The position numbers and the translations under genes are program-made. DNA of 64,000 bases, from positions 20,838 to 84,837 of the forward strand of contig CACMNK010000002.1 of the NCBI GenBank assembly GCA_902615145.1, written 5' to 3'. Shown here piece by piece: positions 22,005-36,869 of this stretch. The DNA comes from an uncultured Pelagibacteraceae bacterium. Lineage in GTDB: Bacteria > Pseudomonadota > Alphaproteobacteria > Pelagibacterales > Pelagibacteraceae. The first letter of the stretch is position 1; the number at the start of each line of letters is the position of its first letter. The notes beneath the pieces are model-generated. The model had not been told where the DNA came from, made no database searches, and was given only the letters and a program-made list of their open reading frames with translations.

Positions 22005-24158
22005 CTATTTTCCAATACTTATTACTGTTAAGTCGTCAGTCAGTTTTTGATTTTTGCTCGTATTTACGACCATTTTAGTTATATCATTTAATTGTTGAGT
22101 GGTGTCTTTGTTGTAATTAGTCTCAATAATATCTATTGATCCGTCGATACCTATTTCTTGTCCTTTATCATTTAAGCTTTCAGATAATCCATCTGTAAAT
22201 GCATAAAATCTTGAACCATTTAGTTTCATCTTATTGATATTATAAATACTTTTGTCTTTCTGTTTGATAACACCCAAGGGAGGTGCTGAACTTAGAAACT
22301 GCTGATATTTCCCATTATCATCTCTAACAATTGCAGGCTGATGACCTGCGTTTACCCATCTAATTTCATCTGTAATTAAATTGTATTCACCAATTATTGA
22401 AGTTACAAACATTCCACCGGTTTTAGTATTATTTAAATCATTATTCATATGCAAAACCATTTCATCTGGATCTACTTTTGATTGGGACAAAACTTCAAAC
22501 AAGGTAGACGCTTTAGCCATAACCATTCCAGCATGAATACCTTTGCCAGCAACATCGGCAATTATAAAATAAATACTATCATTGTGAGGATAGAAGCTAA
22601 AGAAATCACCTGAGACCTCTCTAGCTGATAAGTTTATTCCGTGCACAGGATAATTTTTTAAATTTCTTTTTGGTAAAAAGTTTTCTTGAACTTTTACCGC
22701 TAATTTAACCTCTTTAGAAATTCTTTCACGCCACTTGTTTTTTTCCTCTTCTGTTGTTTCAAGCTTGCTCATTAACTTATTATAATAAAGACCAATCACA
22801 CCACCAGCGGTGAAAGGATCTTGAGGCCCTCTTACTTTAAGATCTCCAGATTCTGATTGTTTGTTTAAAATTGAAATTAAATCATGCTCAATTGAAACTG
22901 CATTATGCTCTGCAATATTTAATCCTAATTCTTCCTGAACAGTACTAACCCTTAATGGGTAAAATTTGTTGACAAAACTTAAAATTATAAAGGAAGATAT
23001 AAACGTAAATGATCCAATGGCCAGAATTCCTATCAATTGAATTTTAATTTGTGAAAATCTATCAAGACCAGTATCTAAAATATTTAAATCACTAAAAAAT
23101 CCAACAGCTAAAGTTCCCCAAATTCCTGCAGCCAAATGAACCGGAACAGCACCAACAACATCATCAATTTCAAATTTGTTTAAAATTTCATTTACAAAAA
23201 TTGCAATGATCGAACCAATGATACCAACAAAAATTGCAGTGACAGACGTCATTGAATTACATCCTGCAGTAATTGCAACTAAACCTGCTAATGGACCTAA
23301 AATAATATAAAAAGGATCGGGTTTTTTATGTTTAAAATATGAAATACCTAATCCAGTTAATAAACCAAAAGCAGCAGCTAAAAATGTATTGATTAAAATT
23401 AAAGGCACTACTTCATCCATCGCCCCATTGCTACCACCATTAAAACCAAACCATCCAAACCACAAAATGAGTGTACCTAAAACAGCAAGTGGAAAACTAG
23501 ATCCAGTGAATTTACCTCTATTAGCATCTGAATATTTACCAATTCTTGGCCCCAAAATAATTACTGCTGCTAAAGCAATCCATCCACCTACAGAATGTAC
23601 AATTGTACTTCCTGCAAAATCAACAAAGCCTAAATCTGAAAGCCATCCGGTTGTTCTTACTGAACCGGTAACAACTAGTAACTGATCTACCGTATCATAT
23701 TTTGAAAGATAACTTGAGGACCACGCCCAATGACCGACTATGGGATAAATTATTCCAGTAGCTAAAACAGTCATAATCAAATAACCATTAAATTTCATTC
23801 TTTCAGCAACAGCACCAGAAATAATTGTTGCAGCAGTTGCAACAAACATTGCTTGGAATACAAAGTAAGTCATGTATTCCGCTTTGTTAGTTTTGAAAAA
23901 AAATAAATCAGTGCCAAAAAAACCGTAATAAGAAGTACCAAACATGATACCAAAACCAAATATCCAGAAAATAACTACAGATACTCCAAAGTCTGCAGCA
24001 TTTTTAAGGGCAACATTAATGCTATTTTTATGCCGTGATAAGCCAGTTTCCATACACATAAAACCTGCTTGCATTATGAAAACTAGAATTGCACAATCTA
24101 TCACCCATAAAGTATCAATGTTACTTGTTAGTACATCAATTACTTCTTGGGGCATCAT
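22005..24158 (-). CDS. Ammonium transporter (Amt) fused to a PP2C/SpoIIE phosphatase
   Basis: FIMQAGF, FQAMF, SGAVAER, DFAGSTIVH, WFGWFGFNGGS, DDVVGAVPVH (Amt); HAMP-like linker; SGDFF, ADVAGKG, FTDGLSE, DDLT (PP2C). Confidence 0.95.
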   Translation of the reverse strand: MMPQEVIDVLTSNIDTLWVIDCAILVFIMQAGFMCMETGLSRHKNSINVALKNAADFGVSVVIFWIFGFGIMFGTSYYGFFGTDLFFFKTNKAEYMTYFVFQAMFVATAATIISGAVAERMKFNGYLIMTVLATGIIYPIVGHWAWSSSYLSKYDTVDQLLVVTGSVRTTGWLSDLGFVDFAGSTIVHSVGGWIALAAVIILGPRIGKYSDANRGKFTGSSFPLAVLGTLILWFGWFGFNGGSNGAMDEVVPLILINTFLAAAFGLLTGLGISYFKHKKPDPFYIILGPLAGLVAITAGCNSMTSVTAIFVGIIGSIIAIFVNEILNKFEIDDVVGAVPVHLAAGIWGTLAVGFFSDLNILDTGLDRFSQIKIQLIGILAIGSFTFISSFIILSFVNKFYPLRVSTVQEELGLNIAEHNAVSIEHDLISILNKQSESGDLKVRGPQDPFTAGGVIGLYYNKLMSKLETTEEEKNKWRERISKEVKLAVKVQENFLPKRNLKNYPVHGINLSAREVSGDFFSFYPHNDSIYFIIADVAGKGIHAGMVMAKASTLFEVLSQSKVDPDEMVLHMNNDLNNTKTGGMFVTSIIGEYNLITDEIRWVNAGHQPAIVRDDNGKYQQFLSSAPPLGVIKQKDKSIYNINKMKLNGSRFYAFTDGLSESLNDKGQEIGIDGSIDIIETNYNKDTTQQLNDITKMVVNTSKNQKLTDDLTVISIGK

Positions 24159-25689: not shown

Positions 25690-25989
25690 ATGACCTATAA
25701 AGTAACAGAAGAAGGAAATGTCAGCACTGTCTTTTTAAATGGAGAGATAGATATGGACGTTACCGAAAAAGCCAAAGAGGTGATTTTACCTATAGTAGAG
25801 TCAGGAAAAGAAGTTCATTTAAACTTGAAAGATGTTTCCTACATGGATTCTTCAGGAATTTCTGTTTTAATTGAAAGTCATCAAAAAGCTTTGGAGCATA
25901 ATACCAAGGTTATTGTCAAAGAGGTAAGTAAATCTGTTTTAAAAGTGATAATGATGGCAAAACTTGAACAGATTTTAAACTTGGAATAA
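25690..25989 (+). CDS. rsbV: STAS-domain anti-anti-sigma factor (RsbV/SpoIIAA family)
   Basis: LNGEID, VSYMDSSG with phosphorylatable Ser; 99 aa. Confidence 0.92.
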   Translation: MTYKVTEEGNVSTVFLNGEIDMDVTEKAKEVILPIVESGKEVHLNLKDVSYMDSSGISVLIESHQKALEHNTKVIVKEVSKSVLKVIMMAKLEQILNLE

Positions 25990-26402
25990 TGAATATAGAA
26001 GAGTCTAAAGATTTTCTTGTAAGTACGGCTAGTTTAAAAGAAGTAAGAACTTTCTCTAGAGAAGTATTTGAAAAAATTAATTTACCACAAGATCAAAAAG
26101 ATGAACTTGTATTAGCAATTGCTGAGGCAGCACAAAATATCGTTAAGCATGCCTATAAAGATATTGCAGAAACATCAGATAGAATGGAAATTAAAATCTC
26201 ACTTAAAAATAGTGATTTAGAGATCGGTTTTTTTGATAAAGGCAAAGCAGTAATACCAGAAAATATTCAACATAGAAAATTAGATGATATTAAACCAGGG
26301 GGTCTTGGGACTTTTTTTATAAAGCAAATTATGGATGCAGCAGTTTTTAAAAAAGACCAAAAAGAATGGGTAAACCATTTGGTACTTACTAAAAAAATTT
26401 AA
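25989..26402 (+). CDS. rsbW: Anti-sigma factor / Ser kinase (RsbW/SpoIIAB family)
   Basis: LAIAEAAQNIVKHAY (N box), FDKGK (G1), GGLGTFFI (G2); translationally coupled to rsbV. Confidence 0.92.
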   Translation: MNIEESKDFLVSTASLKEVRTFSREVFEKINLPQDQKDELVLAIAEAAQNIVKHAYKDIAETSDRMEIKISLKNSDLEIGFFDKGKAVIPENIQHRKLDDIKPGGLGTFFIKQIMDAAVFKKDQKEWVNHLVLTKKI

Positions 26403-32134: not shown

Positions 32135-34582
32135 TTATCCCTTAACATCCACAAAAACTGTAAAATCTTTTTTAATATCTGCAGAGTCTCCAGCCTTGCC
32201 TTTGAAATTCATTTTTCCAAGTGATGCTTGCACAACTAACTCCTGCGTTCCTAAATTATTAATTAACTTCAAAATGTCTTGATCGGTAGCAGCCTGCCCT
32301 CTGATAATTACTTTATTTTTGCCATCGTAATCAACTGATGAAAATTTTATTCTTTTAGGAACACTCATAGCAACTTGAGCTAAAACTCTATAACTCTTCT
32401 GTTTATTTGATTTTAAACTTTTACTTAATTTTAAAGTATTTGTAATTATAGCTAACTCTTTTTTAATTTTCTTTTGTTCAGATGTTTTAGCTTTATGAGT
32501 TTCTAGGACAGTATTGTAATTAATTAGTTTTTTATTGTAAGATTGGATGTTCCAGAAAGATAAACCAAAGAGAATTACATATATTGCTGCTACTGAAGCA
32601 GCTATACCTTTGAAAGCAAAACTTGAAAAAGCTTTCATCTTTTTTTCTTTAATCATGCCTTTTCTGTCAGGAAGTAAGTTTATATTTTTAACGGCAGTAA
32701 CAAATTTATAATAACCAAACACATCCAATTTTCTAAAAGCAAGACCTACAACTGATGATAAGTATGATCTGTTAATTAAATCTACTTTTTCTTTATTTTG
32801 CTGAGGGATTAACAATCCATCAATTGGATCAAATAAGTTAAAACCAACATTTAGTAGACCCTTTCTAAAACTTGACAAAAAATCCTCAACATTTTTTAAA
32901 TCTGAGACTACTTTTATGTTTCTTATTCTTCTCTCATATTTGGTTTCAAAATCTTGAACCGCTTGTTTTACTTGAGTTAAAAATCTTCTTACTAATGCTT
33001 CTTTTTCTTCAACATCTTGTGACTCTAATAATATTTTTCTATCTTGGCCTCTTAAAAAAATATCAGTAATTATTGGGTTATTATCATATAAAATCATTAA
33101 ATAATTCTCATCTAAACCAAATTCTAAAACCGCAGTAAGATTTACATCATCTGTTTTATTTGAGATTTGATTTATTTGATCGACAGCAGATTTTAATGCA
33201 AAGCATTTTACATCAATTATAACTGGGTTGAGATTACTTTGCTTGATTATAGAGGTATAATTATTTATATCAGCCAGCTTTGAAGCAACAAATAAAATAT
33301 CCATTGTATTAGCTTTTTCATTCCTATTAATAACTTGATGGAAAATTGAATAGTCATCTAAGTTATCAGTTAACTGAACTAAATTTTCCCAAAGTGAATT
33401 AGTTTCAATAGCTTTTTGCAATTCCTCTTCTTTCATCAATGGTGCTGTTACAACTCTTATAATCGCGCTTGTGACAGGTATGGCAATTGCAGCATTTAAA
33501 GTTGTAATTTTAGATTTTTGTAATGCAATTGTAAGTTCTGCTCCTAATTTTTCTCCATTATCTAAAACATTTGCATCATCTGGTAAGTCAACTTGGTGAG
33601 CATAAAATTTATCTAATACCCATTGATTTGATTTATTAGTTGATACTTGAGCTAATCTTATTTCTTTGTTTGTAATTTCAACTCCAACAATTTCCTCCCC
33701 TTTAACTGCTGACTTTCCAATTTTAGATTTAAAAAAACTAGTAACTTTTTTCGAAAGTTCATTAGTTTTGAGTGATGGTTTTGAAACTGAACTTTTTTCT
33801 AAGAAGCTTGGCTTTTTAAATTTAATATTTTTTATATTATCTAAAAAAGCAAATTTTGATTTTTTATTTTCTTGTTCGTCCTCTGGTGATTGATTTAAAA
33901 TAGGAGAGTCAATTTTAGGTTCGGTTAACGTAGTTGTTTGACTCGTTTGTTCTTTATTAACAATTTGAGTTGAAGTTTCTGGTTGAACAGATGTTTCTTC
34001 AGTTTTAACAGGTTGCTCTTGAATTTCTTTTTCTTTTTCTTTTCCCGCAACAACGTCATCAAACCATTTTTCTAAAATTGGTATTGCTTCCTCCAAATTA
34101 GGAGTTCCTGATGATGAAATTTTTTGTTTTCCATCATGATAAAGTCTTCCAACCCAATTTTTTGATTTTAATTCACCTTTGTATTTGTCTTGTCGGATAT
34201 AAATATGCAACCTTCCGTCTTTCTTATGGATTACCTCATGCGAGGATCCATTATTTTCATCTTTTTTTTCACTTGAAGGCTCGGATGTTTGTTGTTGGGT
34301 GGTTTCTTGATCGTTGTTTTGACTTGATTCTAAACTTTTTTCGTCATTTTGATTATCTAAAATTTTATTTTCCTCTTTTTTATCACTAGATGTATCTAAA
34401 TTTTGTGTTTGATCATTATTTTCGTTATTATTTTGATTTGATTCAGGGATAGGATCATTTTTTTGATTATCTACACCTTCAGGTTGATTATTTTCATCAA
34501 CTTTAGATTGATTCTCAGATTCAGACTGAGACTTATCTTCATCAATAATTTTTTTTTCGTCGTCTTGATCGTTCATATACAA
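32135..34582 (-). CDS. PilM-PilN fusion with N-terminal acidic linkers and integrase-arm-like domain
   Basis: PilM actin-like core (IVGVEI, AAIAIP, VIIDVKCFAL, VLEFG, VVGLAFR); PilN INLLP at 32669-32683 then TM and PilN domain; ~290-aa N-terminal extension. Confidence 0.88.
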   Translation of the reverse strand: MYMNDQDDEKKIIDEDKSQSESENQSKVDENNQPEGVDNQKNDPIPESNQNNNENNDQTQNLDTSSDKKEENKILDNQNDEKSLESSQNNDQETTQQQTSEPSSEKKDENNGSSHEVIHKKDGRLHIYIRQDKYKGELKSKNWVGRLYHDGKQKISSSGTPNLEEAIPILEKWFDDVVAGKEKEKEIQEQPVKTEETSVQPETSTQIVNKEQTSQTTTLTEPKIDSPILNQSPEDEQENKKSKFAFLDNIKNIKFKKPSFLEKSSVSKPSLKTNELSKKVTSFFKSKIGKSAVKGEEIVGVEITNKEIRLAQVSTNKSNQWVLDKFYAHQVDLPDDANVLDNGEKLGAELTIALQKSKITTLNAAIAIPVTSAIIRVVTAPLMKEEELQKAIETNSLWENLVQLTDNLDDYSIFHQVINRNEKANTMDILFVASKLADINNYTSIIKQSNLNPVIIDVKCFALKSAVDQINQISNKTDDVNLTAVLEFGLDENYLMILYDNNPIITDIFLRGQDRKILLESQDVEEKEALVRRFLTQVKQAVQDFETKYERRIRNIKVVSDLKNVEDFLSSFRKGLLNVGFNLFDPIDGLLIPQQNKEKVDLINRSYLSSVVGLAFRKLDVFGYYKFVTAVKNINLLPDRKGMIKEKKMKAFSSFAFKGIAASVAAIYVILFGLSFWNIQSYNKKLINYNTVLETHKAKTSEQKKIKKELAIITNTLKLSKSLKSNKQKSYRVLAQVAMSVPKRIKFSSVDYDGKNKVIIRGQAATDQDILKLINNLGTQELVVQASLGKMNFKGKAGDSADIKKDFTVFVDVKG

Positions 34583-34595
34583 CTTATAATTTTTT

Positions 34596-34911
34596 CTCTA
34601 ACACAATTTAACGAATCTCTAACACAAAATTATTATTTAGTCTAACACAAAATTATAAAATATATGTTCAAAATGGGCTTTATGTTAAAAAAGTAAGTAA
34701 AATAGCCATTTTTTACAAATTAAAATATTTCTTTAACTTTTTTTTTTAATTTAAATTTTTAATAAACTCTAACACAAATAATTAATTTTAAATTGTGTTA
34801 GAGTATTCTATTTTAATTTTTTTTAAAAAAGTCAATAAAATCAACAAAAATTAAAATGATGCTAAATTTAAAATTTCTTGTGTTAGAGTTTTAACTTTAT
34901 GTGTTAGAGTT
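34596..34911. repeat. Array of seven (C)TCTAACACA(A) sites upstream of pilMN
   Basis: Forward copies at 34596, 34617, 34641, 34766; reverse copies (TGTGTTAGAGT) at 34793, 34878, 34900; 34766/34793 form a perfect 12-bp inverted repeat with a 15-bp spacer. Confidence 0.92.
34665..34679. promoter_or_regulatory. Putative shared palindromic operator TGTTCA-AAA-TGGGCT upstream of pilMN
   Basis: Matches the block-wide motif; lies inside the repeat array. Confidence 0.55.
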
Positions 34912-35420: not shown

Positions 35421-36704
35421 TTATGCACCGTCAACAACTACAATAGTCAGATCGTCTTTTTGAATACGACCAGACTTAATTATATCCTCAACAATTTTAT
35501 TTAATCTTTCGTGATTAGGTGTTTGTTGATACTTTGTAATATAGTTTTTGAATCCATCAGACTCTAACATATTACCTTCAGGATCTTTCATCTCTGTTAT
35601 ACCATCAGTGAATACATACATCGAACTTTCAGAAAATTTTATTTTTGTCTCTTTGTATTTAATCTTCGACATAATTCCTAAAGGTGGACCTGCTTCAGTA
35701 TAGTTTGTAAATTTTCCGTCTTTAGAATGAATTAATGGTGGTTCATGTCCTGCGTTAGCAAGTAGTAATTCTTTTTTATTACTGTCATAAATACCTATAA
35801 GCATTGTTACAAACATTCCACGTGCAGCTGTTTCACAAATTTCAGAATTAAGTAAGTTTAATAAATCAGCAGCAGAAAAAATTGTTTTACTTAAACATCT
35901 ATAAAGACTCGAAGCCTTTGACATTAAAAGGGAAGATTTAATTCCTTTACCAGATACATCTGCTACACCAAAACCAAATTTACCATCACCTAGATCAGAA
36001 AAATTATAAAAATCTCCTGATACAACTTTTGCTGGGATGTTTATTCCTGCTATAGGAAAGTTTTCTTTTTTATTTTGCGACAACAAAGTTTTTTGTATCT
36101 CGCCAACAATTTCAATTTCTTTTTGCATTCTATTCTTATCGACTAAATCTTTTGCCATCTTAGCATTGTTTATTGCTAATGCAGCCGGACCAGACAAAGT
36201 TTCTAAAAGTTTTCTATCATTCTCTTCAAAAAGTTTATTATTAGTTTTTTTGTTTAAGCAATGAATAACGCCAATACATTCATCCGATACAATTAAAGGG
36301 GAACATAGAACTGAATAAGTTGTAAAATTTGTTTTATTATCTAAATCGAAATAAAATTCTGCAATTTCTCTAATATCTTTTCTAACATCGCCAACTCTAA
36401 TACATTTTTTCATGACTGCAGCTTTTCCCATAACTCCTTGAGTAATTGGGATTTCAAAATCCTCAAGATATGCTTGATGTTTGGAAGCAATACATTGGAA
36501 CGATTGATTTTTTTTATCTATTAAAAAAATATTTGCTGCTTGTGCATTAATTCTTTTTATAATTAATTCTAATGAGTTATTAAGTGTTTCTTTTAAATCA
36601 AGAGACATTGCAAACTCTTGATTCATTTTAGTTACCAGCTCTAAATCTTTACTGCTAGTGTCATCTATTTTGATCGTTTCCTTTTTTTTTACACCAAAAA
36701 ACAT
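35421..36704 (-). CDS. rsbU: GAF sensor - PP2C/SpoIIE phosphatase (RsbU-like)
   Basis: GAF (SVLCSPLI...IGVIHCLNK, FEENDRKLLE); SGDFYN, ADVSGKG, FTDGITE, DDLT. Start taken at ATG 36704 (MFFGVK) rather than 36791. Confidence 0.92.
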   Translation of the reverse strand: MFFGVKKKETIKIDDTSSKDLELVTKMNQEFAMSLDLKETLNNSLELIIKRINAQAANIFLIDKKNQSFQCIASKHQAYLEDFEIPITQGVMGKAAVMKKCIRVGDVRKDIREIAEFYFDLDNKTNFTTYSVLCSPLIVSDECIGVIHCLNKKTNNKLFEENDRKLLETLSGPAALAINNAKMAKDLVDKNRMQKEIEIVGEIQKTLLSQNKKENFPIAGINIPAKVVSGDFYNFSDLGDGKFGFGVADVSGKGIKSSLLMSKASSLYRCLSKTIFSAADLLNLLNSEICETAARGMFVTMLIGIYDSNKKELLLANAGHEPPLIHSKDGKFTNYTEAGPPLGIMSKIKYKETKIKFSESSMYVFTDGITEMKDPEGNMLESDGFKNYITKYQQTPNHERLNKIVEDIIKSGRIQKDDLTIVVVDGA

Positions 36705-36869
36705 GTTATTTATAAATTGATATTCGTTAATTTTTTGATAATTTTGAAATTGATGGAAATCATTATTCATGCGCCTAATTTCTATTTGCACCTAACTGAT
36801 GCAATTATGTTAGTACAATACTGCATTAATGGGCTCATAGAATTTTCCTCTCAAATTAAACTCTAAACT

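Follow-up and report, generated by a model that had tools for sequence, protein, structure and literature searches.

The window, a 64,000-nucleotide stretch of DNA from an uncultured Pelagibacteraceae bacterium, contains a pilus operon headed by a gene for a fusion of PilM and PilN (PilMN) and, directly upstream of this gene, an array of seven short repeats. Comparative analysis of both showed that PilMN contains a domain homologous to the N-terminal, arm-type domain of tyrosine integrases, and suggested that this domain was likely captured together with its arm sites and that PilMN likely binds the array and represses pilMNOPQ from the inner membrane. A probability of roughly 0.6 was assigned to this reading, which was reached by sequence comparison.

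The fusion gene encodes 815 aa when read from its TTG and 813 aa when read from the ATG at 34576, the start common to relatives, and is laid out as follows.

32135..34582, minus strand: pilMN fusion gene, heading the operon run (open reading frame, Pfam)
34241..34582, minus strand: acidic N-terminal tail, predicted disordered (composition, model)
34052..34240, minus strand: integrase arm-type domain, aa ~115-177, beta strands and a C-terminal helix (homology, model)
33700..34051, minus strand: linker between arm domain and PilM, about 115 aa, variable and mostly predicted coil
32663..33699, minus strand: PilM actin-like cytoplasmic domain (Pfam match at aa 300-504)
32549..32629, minus strand: transmembrane helix predicted in the PilN part, aa ~652-678
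32198..32389, minus strand: PilN periplasmic domain, aa 732-795 (weak Pfam match)

Assignment to PilM and PilN was based on the Pfam matches (PilM_2, E 1e-16; PilN, E 3e-4, weak and slightly below the cut-off), on the transmembrane helix, which coincides with the single long hydrophobic stretch of the protein, and on the position ahead of pilO-pilP-pilQ. The gene order is pilMN, pilO, a pilP-like gene, pilQ, pilB and pilC; the Pfam match of pilO is below the cut-off and the gene in the pilP position has no PilP match. As the arm domain lies N-terminal to PilM and to the only helix, PilMN is predicted to be a membrane-anchored protein with a cytoplasmic domain of DNA-binding type. That it assembles into the inner-membrane alignment ring is an assumption carried over from other members of the family. 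A compact domain of ~60 aa within an N-terminal extension, described in the initial annotation, was thus located at aa ~115-177. The two acidic, Q/E/N/S-rich tethers said to flank it were recovered on the N-terminal side (aa 1-112 hold 31 D/E vs 11 K/R and are 56% Q/E/N/S) and not on the C-terminal side, which is acidic in its first half only and over aa 181-290 holds 21 K/R vs 17 D/E. The acidic tail is missing in one clade, where the arm domain begins the protein as it does in the integrase. The AlphaFold model of full-length PilMN was of low confidence overall (mean predicted local distance difference test score, pLDDT, of 50; 17 sequences), so the low scores of the linker fit disorder and do not prove it.

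The integrase origin proposed in the initial annotation was supported by direct homology. The PilMN domain aligned with the first ~75 residues of an integrase at 57% over 77 aa (E 8e-22, pairwise) while the rest of the two proteins was unalignable, the similarity stopping at about aa 194 of PilMN; identity to integrase N-termini was 48-62% across representatives. A profile built from 7 divergent short matches retrieved the integrase family, mostly proteins of 418-436 aa with a Phage_integrase domain (PF00589) and in several cases also a SAM-like domain, which supports homology between the PilMN domain and the N-terminal domain of three-domain tyrosine integrases. The AlphaFold2 model of the domain (pLDDT 89.6) predicted strands at residues 13-17, 31-37 and 40-45 and a helix at 51-67. 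In general databases the domain was close to invisible: Pfam gave no match, Foldseek against PDB and viral structures gave nothing at E <= 0.001, a PDB sequence search gave one chance match only, and PHROGs returned one unnamed family (E 5.5e-4). Nothing below E 0.3 was found among INPHARED phages, where the phage copy of the domain described below had no match either. The arm-domain family was absent among the best 25 of 31 families listed for 46 homologs, and no integrase family was found in PilMN by Pfam or NCBIfam. Language-model look-alikes, PF02920 and PF09003 (0.91, 95/256 features), were taken as a lead only.

Within a 50%-cluster library 147 proteins were matched by the profile, of which 28 were scanned with Pfam and the starts of 74 were read; those inspected fell into PilM fusions, integrases, fragments, a small number of seeming chimeras and a phage protein. 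The 13 PilM-borne representatives grouped in a single clade (FastTree support 0.99) in a tree that was built on about 65 residues and rooted at its midpoint. From this tree we infer that PilMN likely captured the domain from an integrase. Between two clades the domain is 85% identical vs 55% for the PilM core, and within one clade uncorrected pN/pS, the ratio of nonsynonymous to synonymous polymorphism, was 0.06 for the domain vs 0.19 for PilM, indicating that the domain is under strong purifying selection. A 182-aa database fragment (P0002) holds the arm domain in two tandem copies and may be an assembly artefact.

The repeat array consists of seven exact copies of TCTAACACA, four in one orientation and three in the other, the first of which begins 14 bp upstream of the TTG, in line with the seven ~10-bp repeats originally noted at that distance. 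The array and the elements within it are listed below.

34597..34605, plus strand: site 1, TCTAACACA, of the proximal triplet, in the predicted 5' leader
34618..34626, plus strand: site 2, at 21 bp from site 1 and likewise within the predicted 5' leader
34641..34649, plus strand: site 3, 23 bp from site 2, overlapping the predicted extended -10 box
34768..34776, plus strand: site 4, 127 bp from site 3, forming an inverted pair with site 5
34794..34802, minus strand: site 5
34879..34887, minus strand: site 6, 85 bp from site 5
34900..34908, minus strand: site 7, 21 bp from site 6
34639..34647, minus strand: predicted extended -10 box of pilMN, TGnTAGACT; the transcript start would be near 34632
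34669..34677, minus strand: CCCAWWWTG-like near-palindrome, also found upstream of domain-less pilM
34825..34845, minus strand: conserved motif of TTGATTTTA followed by a T-tract, between the site clusters; it agrees in part with the consensus of an IHF site

The 843,588-bp assembly holds 10 exact copies of TCTAACACA, 7 of them in the array, against an expected total of 5.2-6.2 (Markov order 2-5). The three remaining copies lie inside long open reading frames (two) or overlap a short doubtful one. When 350-bp windows were scanned genome-wide for 9-mers with at least two G/C, only one other 9-mer reached 7 copies, a lysine/alanine-codon-like repeat on the same contig. The TTGATTTTA motif was present in 24/35 arrays vs 1/29 control regions. 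The strict IHF consensus gave 3 matches in 35 arrays, fewer than in the controls (7 in 29), and the genome encodes HU-like and IHF-beta-like genes. A weaker second TTGATTTTA-type copy is found at about 34690-34710 on the minus strand.

The origin of the motif was traced to the integrases related to the domain. These are encoded by an element of ~5 kb that also bears a serine recombinase, a complete tRNA-Leu(CAA) and small genes, one of them probably for a lipoprotein. The element is inserted into the tRNA-Leu(CAA) of the host at the anticodon region; the 5' half of this tRNA stands ahead of the integrase and its 3' half follows the element. In the genome of the window this site is intact and empty. 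The tRNA-Leu(CAA) carried by the element itself (L120-L123, L214; for example L122:7840-12980) differs in sequence between copies, and the element is satellite-like. A TCTWACAC-type pair, with sites 11 bp apart and 64-65 bp from a ACTCAAAA core, was found in 34/38 integrase entries at up to one mismatch per site, in a search that used the pilM motif as the query and on entries that include many close kin and two from one contig. A second pair across the core occurred in 14 entries, all without the tRNA 5' half, and in 0/13 entries with a tRNA half, which is the attP/attL layout expected of arm sites. The motif was also recovered by unguided 7-mer enrichment, the top three being CTCTTAC, TCTTACA and CTTACAC in 16 non-redundant integrase upstream regions, and CTAACAC, TCTAACA and TAACACA upstream of domain-bearing pilM. 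Some integrases use exactly TCTAACAC. The array motif is thus that of the integrase arm pair, at a spacing of ~21 bp instead of 11 bp. Two integrases with a shorter, diverged arm domain carry TCGTACA pairs at the equivalent positions, so motif and domain change together. These two (L215:3870-5257 and L247:1750-3212), one at tRNA-Leu(CAA) and the other beside tRNA-Leu(TAA), represent a natural specificity control.

PilM was found in 121/301 genomes of the genus, and 80 of 124 matches, spanning the identity range, were fetched with their surroundings. Leaving out seven domain-bearing loci with less than 340 bp of upstream sequence and one locus at a contig edge, 4-8 sites were present within 400 bp upstream in all 38 domain-bearing pilM loci, while none of the 34 domain-less loci had any. 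Across the 301 genomes, 60 carry the domain outside a full-length integrase and 58 carry a site pair at 19-23 bp. The pair was present in 56/60 domain genomes vs 2/241 others; of the four domain-only genomes, two have the locus at a contig edge and two have an array whose sites are unpaired, in the two pair-only genomes the pair lies inside coding sequence, and a reversed control pattern matched 1 genome. Domain and repeats therefore co-occur, the pattern for which the initial annotation proposed to survey SAR11 pilM orthologs. The domain was found in 5/12 genera searched in the order, in one of these only as full-length integrase, and in 0/45 genomes of a second family. One locus of another genus has an integrase-style 11-bp pair at -75/-64 of pilM, and in L253 a perfect 8-bp inverted repeat lies 40-20 bp upstream of pilM, beside an 11-bp site pair in a divergent pilM promoter.

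Within the array it is the sites that are conserved. In 20 genomes sites were 98% identical vs 51% for the spacers, in an alignment partly anchored by the sites themselves. The layouts turn over, with 57 in 68 regions, and the spacing is kept: 152/262 same-direction gaps measured 20-23 bp and the longer ones tended to cluster around multiples of ~10.7 bp, the best-fitting of 7 periods examined (mean cosine 0.41). The array is also kept despite different upstream neighbours. Selection on sites and domain is a stronger argument than co-occurrence. Since the att regions of related integrases share the motif in arm-site geometry and the array tracks the domain, identification of the array as the cognate sites of the domain is supported indirectly but strongly. 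In view of this conservation and of the purifying selection on the domain, it is very unlikely that domain and repeats are mere hitch-hiking remains of an old insertion that have no binding function today. Also against a relic, the tRNA 5' marker was found in 0/38 pilM arrays and the core 8-mer in 3/38 vs 28/28 integrase regions. For a relic speak the adjacency of domain and repeats, which move together, and a split or interrupted gene in 3/80 fetched loci.

Locus L041 indicates that domain and sites move as one adjacent cassette: both are found there with a PilM core of the short type, all of its closest matches being to domain-less forms. L041 has either arisen by recombination or kept the ancestral state. 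For the domain-bearing PilM cores, monophyly was only marginally rejected (approximately unbiased test, p 0.047).

A function in transcription was suggested by the position of the sites. Among 27 distinct integrase upstream regions 18 have, at 15-20 bp ahead of the start, an inverted element resembling a site, in which an extended -10 pattern, TGnTAnnnT, can be read (TGnTATAAT, TGnTATACT, TGnTAGACT or similar). In the clade with the domain at the very N-terminus of PilMN, 14/24 genes have a -35/-10 match of the form TTGA..-16/17-TA...T, mostly TTGAC[GC]-17-TAGAGT, whose -10 falls within the inverted site. In the clade of the window the first site of the proximal triplet reads TAnnnT (TAGACT) in 12/18 arrays, and the other two sites of the triplet do so in 3/18 and 1/18, mostly reading TAGAGA. 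Of the functions raised in the initial annotation autoregulation is hence the one with positive evidence, namely a site over the predicted -10 box. A precedent is described in PMC2951348 for prophage KplE1. There, expression of the intS gene is lowered about 5-fold by its product IntS, the -10 box is overlapped by arm site P'1, and autoregulation is predicted for the majority of integrase genes linked to a tRNA. RNA-library contigs from four studies cover the domain coding region of pilMN; DNA may have contributed to such contigs, and a start site cannot be read from them.

Taken together, the 5' end of an integrase gene and its autoregulatory arm sites would have been joined to pilMN, followed by expansion and re-spacing of the array. 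The domain would bind TCTAACACA, and with site 3 covering the extended -10 box and sites 1-2 in the leader, bound PilMN would block RNA polymerase, reaching the array from the membrane through its flexible linker. Arm domains bind weakly on their own, as is the case for lambda Int. At a spacing of 21 bp, contacts between neighbours such as the 11-bp pairs suggest would not be possible, so that stable binding would likely need several copies of PilMN, as present in the assembled ring. The ~21-bp spacing, the long in-phase gaps and a possible IHF bend may thus favour several tethered domains presented by oligomerised PilMN. Oligomer-dependent binding would in turn give feedback that limits the number of pilus machines, and the bound locus would be held at the membrane. 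Tethering of the locus, another function initially proposed, would follow from binding, which does not establish it as a purpose.

Several observations weigh against repression by PilMN. A simple sigma-70 scan missed the proposed promoter and gave 11 matches vs 7.3 +/- 2.6 in shuffles, and the argument from the -10 box is weakened because the site consensus itself tends to TAnnnT. In a related strain, one contig from an RNA library covers 34592-34692 and so runs past the predicted start. Seven or eight phased sites over 310 bp exceed what a simple operator needs, and in the IntS system no single arm-site mutation is reported to have lifted repression (accessible text of PMC2951348). On the structural side the best match of the domain, the HPI integrase arm domain 3jtz, reached only Z 5.2 (root-mean-square deviation 2.6, 58 aligned) and was tied with an AP2 domain, 6sy0, at Z 4.9. 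The co-occurrence counts are not independent, as the PilM-core tree needs only two state changes (tree of 41 of 75 rows), corresponding to about two independent gain or loss events, and the co-occurrence is in part linkage because the array adjoins the domain coding sequence.

An extension of autorepression, put forward tentatively as one possibility, is that the pilus machine counts itself: only assembled, oligomeric PilMN would grip the array, shut off pilMNOPQ and hold the locus. Since the DNA code would be common to the integrative element and to a phage copy of the domain, element and phage could plug into this switch, and infection or induction would turn the pilus on or off. The phage copy was found on five viral contigs, which encode a protein of 112-116 aa composed of the arm domain, a helix and a C-terminal hydrophobic tail.

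L124:7980-8327; L125; L126:7980-8330; L127:1828-2178; L128:1078-1416: phage protein, on T4-like marine phage contigs

The tail scored 2.3-2.4 on the Kyte-Doolittle scale over 19 aa in the three proteins checked, and in the tree the domain nests among element integrases. NrdB of one of the contigs was closest to that of pelagiphages Mosig (78%) and HTVC008M (69%), and one version of the protein is recorded on 359 contigs. L260 and L261 match the tail part only. As no site clusters were found in the five partial phage contigs (40 scattered TCTWACAY vs 31 for the reversed control), the target of the phage protein likely lies in the host or the element, and the protein could be an anti-satellite factor or a factor that shuts off the host pilus. 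That the domain has been joined independently to a membrane anchor here suggests that attachment to the membrane is of importance.

The same observation, together with the transmembrane helix of PilMN and many phased sites suited to a strong multivalent grip, could also be taken to mean that binding mainly holds the pilus locus at the membrane for localised synthesis and assembly, or for activation, rather than repressing it. Capture of a locus by membrane regulators is reported for the second type III secretion system (T3SS2) and the tfoR promoter, according to the available portions of PMC9977878 and PMC11856585. We consider this explanation unlikely. The sites lie on the predicted -10 box and after it, a repressor position, and domain-less pilM forms of 67-77% identity are equally common in the genus. 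A related role as an origin, terminus or segregation anchor was not supported, because the pilM locus lies 13-26% of the chromosome from dnaA in 5/5 complete genomes checked and is near neither origin nor terminus in any of them.

The module could alternatively sense or oppose the element, in that replicating element DNA titrates PilMN, PilMN sequesters arm sites, or the integrase binds the array and switches the pilus genes. This would account for a motif kept nearly identical to that of extant elements, and in some cases exactly TCTAACAC, and for T4-like phage contigs that carry the membrane-tailed domain without a site array of their own. Tandem copies of the element were seen in one assembly, resembling the satellite concatemers reported in the accessible text of PMC9618062, and one genome has both the PilMN fusion and a full-length integrase. 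A full-length integrase is, however, present in only 2/301 genomes vs 60 with the domain elsewhere, and defence alone leaves the array at the promoter of pilMN unexplained. Element-bearing genomes are too few for an exclusion test. A primary function of this kind is accordingly rated as quite improbable.

Capture of incoming DNA at the pilus base in the manner of a DNA-uptake-sequence receptor, also among the functions first suggested, is scarcely credible despite the placement of the domain at the cytoplasmic base of the machine, as an uptake sequence would be expected genome-wide while TCTAACACA is at chance level outside the array, and as the DNA bound by arm domains is double-stranded, unlike transforming DNA, which enters the cytoplasm as a single strand; TCTAACACA was likewise rejected as an uptake sequence in its own right. 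DNA uptake has been proposed as a function of SAR11 pili (PMC12789548, accessible text).

Three further assignments were rejected. The array is not regarded as an att site, nor PilMN as a recombination system, given the lack of a catalytic domain and, as noted above, the absence of a tRNA remnant and the rarity of the core 8-mer. An invertible switch or other recombination site was discarded on the grounds that most genomes have no catalytic partner, that there is no core and that 20 upstream regions are collinear. CCCAWWWTG was considered as the att core of the captured module and dismissed, as it occurs upstream of domain-less pilM in 14/34 loci vs 20/38 domain-bearing ones and so lies outside the module. 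Short pilM forms also share a TTCTAGT..GTTGA motif; this and CCCAWWWTG are possibly sites for a native regulator.

By domains and gene order PilMN is a PilM/PilN, and comparison with known systems places it next to several other families. With tyrosine-integrase arm domains (lambda Int, HPI/P4-type, Tn916) it shares homology to the integrase N-terminus and a site motif that in the integrases forms paired repeats flanking the att core; its strands-plus-helix model is closest to 3jtz, at the low score given above and level with AP2. It differs in having no core-binding or catalytic domain, an array with neither att core nor tRNA, sites ~21 bp apart vs 11, and fusion to a subunit of a membrane machine. 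IntS of KplE1, as far as the available text of PMC2951348 goes, is alike in that arm sites overlap its own promoter, with one over the -10 box, and in belonging to a tRNA-targeted element with attL upstream of the integrase gene, as here. IntS acts, however, as a whole soluble integrase that controls itself only and its repression is shown, whereas PilMN retains the arm domain only, would control a host operon and is a repressor by inference. VtrA/VtrB and ChiS/TfoS (accessible parts of PMC9977878 and PMC11856585) are likewise inner-membrane proteins with a cytoplasmic DNA-binding domain near the promoter of a surface machine; these are dedicated regulators and in these papers activators, whereas PilMN is a structural subunit with an integrase-type domain.

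The PilM-PilN fusion of SAR11, with both domains, a transmembrane helix and the pilMNOPQ order, and the existence of two pilus versions in SAR11 have been reported previously (bioRxiv 10.64898/2026.10.07.757358); the main text of that preprint mentions neither the extra domain nor the repeats, a passage in it on DNA binding concerning a phage domain. The integrase-bearing element resembles VEIMEs (PMC9618062, accessible text) in being an integrative element of ~5 kb in Pelagibacteraceae with a tyrosine integrase as well as a serine recombinase, and in occurring in tandem copies. On these grounds it is a candidate member of the VEIMEs. No description of an integrase-type domain on PilM with a site array was found in the full-text literature searched, outside of which most subscription journals fall. 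Because it fails or goes beyond each known family the PilMN architecture is rated as new, its logic likely borrowed from integrase autorepression.

Two other features of the locus were observed. In the loci with a split or interrupted pilMN (L042, L080 and L087), two have the domain in a separate open reading frame before PilM; sequencing error and natural inactivation are candidate causes. Inside the pilus cluster, at window positions 22005-24158, 25690-26402 and 35421-36791, are a GAF-SpoIIE phosphatase (Pfam) and what on visual inspection look like a fusion of an ammonium transporter with a phosphatase, an anti-sigma antagonist and a kinase. These genes could feed into pilus control.

If repression of pilMNOPQ by PilMN holds true, a structural subunit of the pilus would be a sequence-specific regulator of its own operon, linking assembly of the machine to transcription in a way of which no description was found in the literature searched. 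It would also represent a clear case of a DNA-binding domain of a mobile element taken over together with its sites, for which relatives of the source element are still extant for comparison. The system would be easy to test, being made up of a 60-aa domain and a 9-bp site, with natural domain-less controls and with integrases of different site as specificity controls.

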